From NCBI GenBank assembly GCA_026023565.1, contig JAPETS010000005.1:124001-188000 (forward strand): a DNA stretch of 64,000 nucleotides. The letters run 5' to 3'. Positions 41,887 to 44,121 of this stretch are shown here, piece by piece (positions within the stretch are counted from its first letter, which is position 1; every line of letters begins with the position of its first letter). Source of the DNA: Cirrosporium novae-zelandiae (Eukaryota). A program made the translations under genes and the position numbers. A model generated the notes under the pieces. The model was not told where the DNA came from. It searched no databases and saw only the letters and a program-made list of their open reading frames with translations.

Positions 41887-42603
41887 ATGGCTCCAAAGAA
41901 GACCAAGAAGACTTCCGAGTCTGTATGTTTTTTGCCCTCAACTCTGGTTCTAATCATCACAATTACTGACTCGAAAAAAAAATAGATCAACAGCAGGCTT
42001 GCCCTGGTGATGAAATCCGGAAAGGTTACTCTAGGATATAAGAGTACTTTGAAATGTCTTCGATCAGGCAAGGCCAAGTTAGTCATCATTGTATGTCCAG
42101 TATCCAGGCACAAGAACTCCATTCATCGTTTTTAACATTCTCCATAGGCCGGCAACACCCCACCCCTCAGGAAATCTGAGCTCGAATGTAAGAATGGACA
42201 GGTACTGCAATAGCTGAGATCTCTTATACTGATGCAAATTGCAAAGACTACGCTATGCTTTCTAAAACCAATGTCCATCACTTCCAAGGAAATAACGTAC
42301 GTTCACCACCCGTTTTCCCCTACTCCCATACCCTTCTCTTGAGGCTCAAAGACCAGATTTCCATGTCTCGAGAGTCTTGCCCAGCGAAGAAGTCTCCTTT
42401 GTGGGAGAGGGACTTTGGAGGGCCTCAACAAGCAGCTAACACTCTCACAGATTGAATTAGGGACAGCCTGGTAGGTTATCTTGACGATGTCGAACTGTCA
42501 ACGTTCCCGTCTAACCAATATTTGTAGCGGTAAACTTTTCCGGTGTTCTACACTTGCAGTCCTTGACGCTGGTGACTCCGACATCCTTACTGGCTCCCAG
42601 TAA
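41887..42603 (+). CDS. RPL30: 60S ribosomal protein eL30
   Basis: Six exons give [108 protein letters not shown]. Confidence 0.98.
42339..42428 (+). promoter_or_regulatory. Structured intronic RNA element with a kink-turn in RPL30 intron 4
   Basis: Outer stem TTGAG/CTCAA; hairpin AAGAC/GTCTT; K-turn GCCC-AGC-GAAG-AAGTC paired with GACTT-TGGA-GGGC. Confidence 0.7.
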
Positions 42604-42849
42604 ATGACATGAAAAAAGGTGGCATGGATTGGATGTTTTATGTTGAGACGGACAGCGAACTCTTAATAGAAGATATTCGCTTGATGACTAGATATATAGT
42701 CGTGAATACCAAAAACAATTCGGCCAGTCGGCCTTGAATCAATCCGAATTTCATCGTACAGCAAATCCATGTTTTTCCAGTGTTACAAATCAAGGTGTAT
42801 CTGTAAGCCTCGTAGATGACTCAGTGACCCAAGTAAGTTAAAGGCATGG

Positions 42850-43042: not shown

Positions 43043-44121
43043 ATGTAAGCTTCCATTTTCTTACCGTCGTCCTGATCGATCTAGTCTGACCTTTCAACTC
43101 TAGGGCTCGCCGTCCCGCAAGTAAGGATTATATCTTATGACATGGTCGAAACTGAGCTGAACTCCATCCTAGGATGTTATCGCTATTGCAAGAACAAGCC
43201 CTACCCGAAGTCCCGGTTCAACGTATGTGAATTCTCCACCTGACGGCACTTATCGTACGTGAGGAGAGCTAACTTGAAACCAAAAACAGCGTGGTGTGCC
43301 AGACCCAAAGGTACATATTTATTCGCAAAATCGTGACAAAAAACCCATCTAGACTAAATATTCCTAGATCCGTATCTTCGATCTTGGCCGAAAGAGGGCG
43401 AACGTCGACGAATTCCCCCTTTGCGTTCACATGGTTTCCAACGAATACGAACAAGTAAGGATAAAACGGAGTACAAGATGAAGAAAGTGGTACTAATTAT
43501 GAACTAAAAAAATAAAGCTGAGCTCTGAAGCCCTCGAAGCTGCCCGTATCTGTGCCAACAAGTACCTCGTCAAGGTTGCCGGAAAAGAAGGTGTACGTAC
43601 AATTGGAACATTGATCGAAACAAACACCTAGATGCTGATCATATCAAACAGTTCCACCTTCGTGTCCGCGCTCACCCATTCCACGTTGTCCGAATCAACA
43701 AAATGGCAAGTCCACTGACCCCAAACTAATCACAAGACCTCCTAACTAACAAACACTAAAGTTATCGTGTGCCGGAGCTGATCGTCTCCAAACCGGCATG
43801 CGCGGAGCATGGGGCAAGCCCAACGGCTCCGTCGCCCGCGTCAACATTGGCCAGATCCTCCTCTCCGTCCGCACCAAGGATGCGCACCGCGCCACCGCCA
43901 TTGAAGCCCTCCGCCGCTCCATGTACAAGTTCCCCGGCCGCCAGAAGATCATCGTCTCCAAGAACTGGGGCTTCACTCCTCTGCGACGCGACGAGTACGC
44001 CCAGGCCAGACAGGAGGGTCGCATCCTCATCGACGGCGCTTACGTGCAGTTCCTGAGCACCCATGGAAACCTAGCTGACAATGTCAGGCGGTTCCCCAAG
44101 GCGTTTGAGAGCGAGGCTTAG
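43043..44121 (+). CDS. RPL10: 60S ribosomal protein uL16
   Basis: Eight exons give [39 protein letters not shown]...[20 protein letters not shown]. Start codon split AT|G by intron 43045-43103; last intron 43706-43761 is GC-AG. Confidence 0.98.

Follow-up and report, generated by a model that had tools for sequence, protein, structure and literature searches.

Only for budding yeast is the autoregulation of a ribosomal protein through splicing textbook knowledge; there, L30 exerts its effect at the 5' splice site. The autoregulatory kink-turn (K-turn) of Saccharomyces cerevisiae RPL30 (Eng & Warner 1991; Vilardell & Warner 1994; Mao 1999; Chao & Williamson 2004; Macias 2008; cited in PMC6298567, PMC5061560 and PMC4695336) includes the 5' splice site of the protein's own pre-mRNA, and L30 bound to it represses the recruitment of the U2 small nuclear ribonucleoprotein (snRNP) (Macias 2008 via PMC4695336; PMC6298567). 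This K-turn has U.G at 3b.3n, and L30e is a member of the L7Ae family of K-turn binders (PMC5061560). Here, we describe a K-turn hairpin in intron 4 of the eL30 (RPL30) gene of Cirrosporium novae-zelandiae, found in a stretch of 64,000 nt that was analyzed as a whole and is called the window below (GenBank assembly GCA_026023565.1, contig JAPETS010000005.1, positions 124,001 to 188,000 of the forward strand). This hairpin is conserved, is specific to eL30 genes in the DNA searched and is most likely a site of eL30 autoregulation.

Related systems have been described in other organisms. In Schizosaccharomyces pombe, rpl30-1 represses the splicing of rpl30-2, with nuclear decay that involves Mmi1 and the exosome (Lemieux 2011 via PMC4695336). 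Archaeal L7Ae regulates itself at the level of translation via a K-turn in its own 5' leader (PMC6298567). In Pezizomycotina, Li & Breaker (2017, BMC Genomics 18:785, PMC5640933) reported an 'rpl30 motif' in 60S L30 genes, with 47 examples in 26 species, in which a long unstructured 5' region leads into a large hairpin whose internal loop is purine-rich and conserved. That motif was mostly found in the 5' untranslated regions (UTRs) of L30 genes, and L30 binding and autoregulation were proposed; Eurotiomycetes, Sordariomycetes, Botryotinia and Leptosphaeria are among the species and lineages listed (PMC5640933).

The intron 4 hairpin

The eL30 gene occupies positions 41887..42605 of the window (+ strand, start to stop codon, read from the sequence and the stop-to-stop frames). 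Its five introns are 63, 57, 59, 154 and 57 nt long, so that intron 4 is the sole long one, as an earlier note on this DNA had pointed out (154 nt, with the other four, here measured at 57-63 nt, given as about 60 nt). Intron 4 (42297..42450, + strand; GTACGT...CACAG, 154 nt) lies between the codons for ...GNN and IELG....

The hairpin starts 82 nt into this intron (42379..42423, + strand) and was defined by pairing, a covariance model and an orthologue alignment. Its canonical (C) stem, GCCC (42379-82) with GGGC (42420-23), is followed by the bulge AGC (42383-85) and by a core of G42386.A42419, A42387.G42418, A42388.G42417 (3b.3n) and G42389.U42416. The non-canonical (NC) stem is formed by AAGUC (42390-94) and GACUU (42411-15); it has 8 bp counted from 4b and ends in a 12-nt loop. 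The internal loop can thus be written AGC-GAAG / UGGA.

A standard K-turn consists of a 3-nt bulge and then G.A and A.G pairs (PMC5061560). The window hairpin has a 3-nt bulge between a Watson-Crick C-stem and an NC-stem; immediately next to this bulge, the sequence gives G.A (1b.1n) and then A.G (2b.2n). It also has C-G at -1b.-1n and a folding-permissive 3b.3n, A.G. According to the passages seen of PMC5061560, folding of K-turns in Mg2+ is conferred by 3n = G or 3b = C, and HmKt-7, with A.G at 3b.3n, folds fully in Mg2+. The earlier note had recognized a consensus K-turn with 3b.3n = A.G as in Kt-7, which agrees with this rule, and all the pairings that it listed are present at the positions it gave.

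From the window sequence alone, the fold of intron 4 is unremarkable. The z-scores of the minimum free energy (MFE) were -0.17 for the whole intron and -1.22 for its core, not beyond shuffled sequences. A loose K-turn finder returned 24 matches on the + strand of the 64-kb window, 2 of which, the element described here among them, combine a C-stem of 4 bp or longer with an NC-stem of 6 bp or longer. A search of Rfam 15 gave no family match for the window region at E <= 10 or for 8 orthologous loci at E <= 1. The hairpin was also considered as part of an intron-encoded box C/D snoRNA; this reading was rejected because its two strands, AGCGAAGAAG and UUUGGAGGG, contain neither a C box (RUGAUGA) nor a D box (CUGA).

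Conservation and genomic context

Metagenome contigs were scanned with an alignment of 18 Pezizomycotina eL30 proteins, and the best 80 of 495 relatives, as ranked by tblastn, were retained (loci numbered with L); most of these were intron-less or transcript-like. An intron at the GNN|IELG position of intron 4 was found in 10 of the 80 loci, corresponding to 8 distinct sequences (L068 = L070 and L076 = L078). Seven of these eight introns (L005, L008, L034, L057, L068, L076 and L080; 99-159 nt) carry the same hairpin, which was not found in the eighth (L014, 60 nt). The consensus is a C-stem RCCC/GGGY, a 3-nt bulge, GA, A.G, G.U, a variable stem with a loop of 3-19 nt, and a 3' strand ...CUUUGGA-GGGY. 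Both the GA/GA core and the 3-nt bulge are invariant in the 16 K-turn instances collected, and the 4-bp C-stem is fully paired in 15 of them (L005 pairs at 3 of 4 positions). The nucleotide at 3n is G in 13 of the 16 instances and 3b is C in the remaining 3, so the rules predict folding in Mg2+ for 16/16.

Covariation was assessed on 11 aligned hairpins. In total, 95.4% of the cells were paired, and compensatory changes were observed at 8 of the 10 pairs, in both stems. Slid alignments reached at most 61.5% and none of 500 shuffles attained the observed values, although these controls are somewhat flattering because the structure was drawn from those same sequences. RNAalifold independently predicted the same two helices. 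A covariance model that excluded the window sequence (R2) recovered 42379-42423 at 41.1 bits, with an E-value of about 5e-11 (the E-values are rough), and its next match in the 64-kb window scored 10.3 bits. With a second model (R1), a search of the window and the 80 eL30 loci (242 kb) returned 17 matches at E <= 0.02, all within these introns or downstream of the eL30 gene of L004. A search of 35 other eL30 loci (70 kb) with the filters off gave nothing below E 0.9, and neither R1 nor R2 matched the 5' regions of the searched eL30 loci or of the window. The alignment and covariation analysis that the earlier note had called for thus revealed a conserved GA/GA core and conserved stems. Within the DNA searched, the motif is exclusive to eL30 genes and, because it is conserved in orthologues, sequence comparison places the K-turn arm far beyond chance.

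The position of the hairpin within the intron is also conserved. The last 50 nt of intron 4 contain a single YTRAY match, the branch-point motif CTAAC (42436..42440, + strand), 12 nt after the K-turn; the branch A would be 42439, at a distance of 11 nt from the 3' splice site. Read as GCTAAC (42435-40), the motif begins 11 nt past the C-stem of the K-turn and 6 nt past an outer stem proposed in the earlier note, which had placed the element next to this branch point, within an intron of the eL30 gene itself; the comparison supports this placement. The distance of 12 nt between the end of the K-turn and the branch motif in the window compares with 2-11 nt in six orthologues. L008 has only the variant CTTAC, 11 nt downstream of its K-turn (read by eye).

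A second K-turn hairpin is present in four orthologues, 2 nt upstream of the first in L008, L057 and L076 and 14 nt upstream in L034. When the introns are aligned, the upstream arm of the window intron falls into register with the second, distal K-turns of L008, L057 and L076. A degenerate distal K-turn-like hairpin can tentatively be placed there from the orthologue alignment (42343..42376, + strand), with a C-stem GGCUC/GAGUC, a bulge AAA, G42351.A42371, A42352.G42370 and C.C at 3b.3n, followed on the NC side by one bulged C and a weak 3-bp helix, AGA/UCU. The distal C-stem is paired in 5/5 sequences, with compensatory change at 3 of 4 pairs, including U-A in the window for C-G. Model R2 did not detect this distal copy in the window and the MFE structure prefers another helix; therefore, the arm is only tentatively regarded as a degenerate second copy.

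Locus L004 presents a different arrangement. Its eL30 coding sequence (1501-1824) has no introns, and among its named relatives Eurotiomycetes come closest, with identities of 85% or less. Three R1 matches (33.2, 21.3 and 20.3 bits) follow the stop codon (1858-2211), each within an apparent intron of 84-94 nt that begins with GTAGGT, GTACGT or GTATGT and continues to a CTAAC, CTAAC or CTGAC motif and then AG; the K-turns lie 9-10 nt before the branch motif. No open reading frame (ORF) was found in the 3' region that holds the three matches, and these are apparently 3'UTR introns. If they are real, the K-turn and the branch point would form a unit that travels independently of the reading frame, since L004 carries three K-turns in such introns. 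The second and third introns are preceded by near-identical exon ends (...GCTGAAGCAG and ...GCTGAAAGCAG), which suggests that the repeats arose by tandem duplication.

Evidence for the motif in named species came from mis-annotated proteins and is indirect, as it rests on peptides rather than on DNA. Among 191 database eL30 proteins, 31 had an insert or a read-through after GNN; this count includes 6 inserts of at most 11 residues, which end before the element, and 2 mere sequence variants. In 13 of the 31, the peptides back-translate to both K-turn strands in the right order, compared with 28 of 620 shuffled inserts. Twelve of the 13 positive proteins are from named organisms (the exception is P0049), and the lineages that were looked up for the positives span six classes of Pezizomycotina: Eurotiomycetes (Aspergillus udagawae, Rhinocladiella and Endocarpon), Dothideomycetes (Bogoriella), Lecanoromycetes (Gomphillus), Candelariomycetes (Candelina), Leotiomycetes (Diplocarpon) and Sordariomycetes (Monosporascus). 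Proteins of Exophiala, which we take to belong to the Eurotiomycetes, and of Didymella and Phyllosticta, presumably Dothideomycetes, were positive as well.

It should be noted that many public eL30 models are wrong at the K-turn intron, as they read through it, stop inside it (models of 88-89 aa) or partly splice around it. Gene predictors seem to be misled by this intron repeatedly.

The gene model of the window comprises six exons on the + strand (41887-41922, 41986-42090, 42148-42187, 42247-42296, 42451-42470 and 42528-42605), with the stop codon TAA at 42603-05. The translation of exon 2 is 94-97% identical to fungal eL30 proteins (PF01248), and the position of intron 4 is shared with the 8 distinct metagenome orthologues. 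By partial match, the closest named proteins are from Chaetothyriales and Helotiales, although eL30 is too conserved to tell organisms apart. Exon 5 (42451..42470) is a micro-exon of 20 nt between introns 4 and 5 that encodes IELGTA plus 2 nt; it owes its existence to an additional intron (42471-42527), which interrupts the Cys codon in IELGTAC|GK. The IELGTACGK stretch is unsplit in 8/8 metagenome orthologues, a set biased to few or in-frame introns. Downstream of RPL30, a uL16 (RPL10) gene was read from the frames at about 43045-43650 of the window (+ strand). The same RPL30-RPL10 order occurs in L014, L034, L057, L068 and L080, and the two genes are fused in one database model, the Exophiala dermatitidis protein P0004 (341 aa).

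A candidate autoregulatory site and its alternatives

We propose that surplus eL30 probably binds the K-turn or K-turns of intron 4 and blocks recognition of the branch point, so that intron 4 would be retained and the transcript would be unproductive. eL30 present above the demand of ribosome assembly would bind the hairpin on the nascent pre-mRNA. During the docking of U2, SF3a/SF3b contact the RNA immediately 5' of a branch point. Bound eL30 would occlude this stretch and thereby keep BBP/SF1 and the U2 snRNP from engaging the branch point. The retained transcript would then be held and degraded in the nucleus, or would yield a truncated or disrupted protein. An eL30 autoregulatory site predicts a K-turn in eL30's own intron, near the branch point and conserved with the gene, which matches what was observed. 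To this extent, the splicing autoregulation claimed by the earlier note agrees with the comparison; we infer the remainder, namely eL30 as the ligand, the block to splicing and the fate of the unspliced RNA, from sequence.

The note's coupling of intron retention to nonsense-mediated decay (NMD) fared less well. Retained intron 4 does read on to a premature TGA, as it had stated: the frame 42192..42455 is open and the first in-frame stop is at 42453..42455 (+ strand). This premature termination codon (PTC) lies 3 nt into exon 5 and 15 nt before the junction between exon 5 and intron 5. In its junction-dependent mode, NMD requires that a junction follow the stop by 50 nt or more, and the exon junction complex (EJC) takes part in NMD in Neurospora (PMC6173133). 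In L080, the retained intron contains no in-frame stop, and the K-turn modules of L004 are located past the stop codon. Given these three observations, coupling to NMD is doubtful, and nuclear retention or decay, or a non-functional product, would fit better than PTC-dependent NMD.

The alternative that survives best is that another protein of the L7Ae family, such as Snu13 or Nhp2, binds the K-turn, or that the hairpin serves only to give the intron its shape, for instance by bringing the 5' splice site closer to the branch point, with no sensing of eL30. Indeed, the sequence rules predict that the element folds in Mg2+ without protein, and mammalian intronic K-turn or K-loop RNAs bound by 15.5K were reported to suppress excision of their host introns (bioRxiv 10.64898/2026.08.03.742641). 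We nevertheless regard it as unlikely. In the 242 kb of eL30 loci and the 64-kb window, all occurrences of the motif fall inside eL30 genes or a short way downstream of them, and the association persists in L004, whose eL30 gene no longer has coding introns, which would be hard to explain unless the gene product were the ligand. The absent C/D boxes and the lack of an Rfam match speak against another ligand, and a mere spacer helix would not keep its internal loop invariant while its stems vary.

The architecture drawn in the earlier note is a weaker candidate still, and we consider it improbable. There, TTGAG/CTCAA closes a three-way junction that toggles to an alternative fold, UUGAGGCUC paired with GGGCCUCAA, with NMD as the readout. 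All the listed pairings exist, and the alternative 9-bp pairing is strong in the window (-15.0 kcal/mol, attained by 0 of 300 shuffles). However, the 5-bp outer stem was equalled or beaten by 34% of shuffles in the window, and nothing comparable was found in the 7 orthologues. Pairing of the UUGAGGCUC-GGGCCUCAA type was no better than shuffles in 6 of the 7 orthologues and borderline (5%) in L068. The upstream arm aligns with the second K-turns of the orthologues, and its AAGAC/GTCTT hairpin competes with the distal K-turn C-stem GGCUC/GAGUC, which the comparison favors. The MFE structure of the intron core is dominated by yet another helix, in which 10 bp join CUCUUGAGGC and GUCUCGAGAG (42336-42375) and which competes with both the AAGAC/GTCTT hairpin and the distal K-turn. 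The readout suffers from the PTC lying 15 nt from the next junction, against the at least 50 nt required (PMC6173133), and from the stopless retained intron of L080. Both the three-way junction and the two-state switch are therefore rejected as conserved features.

That the hairpin is a functionless chance resemblance in a long intron is very improbable, for although the MFE z-scores are not significant and the window has many hairpins that loosely resemble K-turns (24 on one strand), it is conserved with compensatory changes in 7 of 8 distinct orthologous introns and is recovered by the window-free model at 41.1 bits, against 10.3 for the next match.

Several points weigh against autoregulation by eL30 through this hairpin. 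Snu13, Nhp2 and eL8 also bind K-turns, so that eL30 as the ligand is suggested by gene context only. The thermodynamic fold of intron 4 is no better than that of shuffles, and the MFE structure of the core pairs CUCUUGAGGC with GUCUCGAGAG, leaving the distal K-turn undrawn. The orthologue set is small (7 distinct introns and L004), selected by tblastn rank and drawn from metagenome contigs. The lengths of all seven K-turn-bearing orthologous introns (99-159 nt) are divisible by 3, unlike the 154 nt of the window intron, most likely because tblastn ranking favors in-frame introns rather than for a biological reason; this most likely points to selection in how the set was assembled. No K-turn peptides were found in the read-through proteins of three species of Aspergillus section Nigri or in 7 of the other inserts of at least 19 residues, and the element may be absent or located elsewhere in some lineages. 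Finally, a block to splicing in the 3'UTR of L004 would leave the protein unchanged and could even spare the mRNA from junction-dependent NMD.

A broader model may be put forward tentatively, and we hold it at somewhat less than even chances. Filamentous ascomycetes might regulate eL30 by a portable module of one or tandem K-turns placed 2-12 nt upstream of a branch point, at which eL30 would block branch-point and U2 engagement inside an internal intron, and not at the 5' splice site as in budding yeast. The module would be independent of the reading frame, as in L004, which would have lost its coding introns and would carry three K-turn introns in its 3'UTR; the output of the module would for that reason be that the stalled pre-mRNA is retained in the nucleus or decays there, and not PTC-dependent NMD. 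With tandem copies, the response would be cooperative and steeper.

Comparison with described systems

The window element is quite likely the rpl30 motif of Li & Breaker, the two having been compared by description. It is likewise a hairpin with a purine-rich internal loop, and in the DNA searched it accompanies eL30 genes exclusively. Their set averages about 1.8 examples per species, which fits the tandem copies seen here, and their list has Botryotinia, while the Sclerotiniaceae-like L076 has two K-turns in this intron. They differ in that the published motif lies mostly in 5'UTRs, whereas the hairpin was found here in the GNN|IELG intron of the window and of 7 orthologues. In addition, the main text of PMC5640933 does not contain the terms 'kink' or 'K-turn', and its passages on the motif make no mention of proximity to a branch point. 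The earlier note had been right to advise a check of known fungal intron motifs, yet it overstated the novelty, as the rpl30 motif was proposed in 2017. In the literature searched, which lay outside subscription journals, the term 'rpl30 motif' was found only in PMC5640933, and no paper was found that combines RPL30, a kink-turn, an intron and fungi. What is new here is the identification of the loop as a K-turn, its constant adjacency to the branch point, the occurrence of tandem copies and the variant in 3'UTR introns. For a candidate motif that had been published but not characterized, the internal loop is thereby identified as a K-turn and the reported location probably corrected.

As a hairpin of 45 nt with defined GA mutants, the element makes the hypothesis directly testable. 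If the proposal is true, nature would offer a compact case in which a K-turn binder occludes a branch point, and the module could serve as a small protein-responsive splicing switch in filamentous fungi.

In S. pombe, too, an eL30 protein lowers the splicing of an rpl30 intron, and nuclear degradation, in place of a PTC, as the output would also suit L004 and L080. That system acts between paralogues, through Mmi1 and the exosome, and a K-turn is not described in the passages of PMC4695336 on it. Archaeal L7Ae resembles the present case in that a ribosomal protein of the L7Ae family binds a K-turn hairpin in its own mRNA. It differs in regulating translation and not splicing, and those K-turns are predicted to be unfolded without protein (PMC6298567), whereas the present ones are predicted by the sequence rules to fold in Mg2+.

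The S. cerevisiae system shares with the window the eL30 pre-mRNA itself and a K-turn whose core is GA/GA and whose loop is rich in purines, and in yeast it is splicing that is regulated. Neither R1 nor R2 matched the yeast-like loci. In the Saccharomyces-like locus L066, we read an NC helix that contains both the AUG and the 5' splice site, a C-stem (CGC/GUG) directed towards the loop, and AGA as the bulge. The yeast K-turn lies at the 5' end, in the 5' leader and at the 5' splice site of the first intron. In the window, by comparison, the C-stem closes the hairpin, 3b.3n is A.G and the element stands in intron 4 by the branch point, often as two copies in orthologues. This suggests that the same protein-RNA pair may operate across Pezizomycotina in a different geometry, adjoining the branch point.

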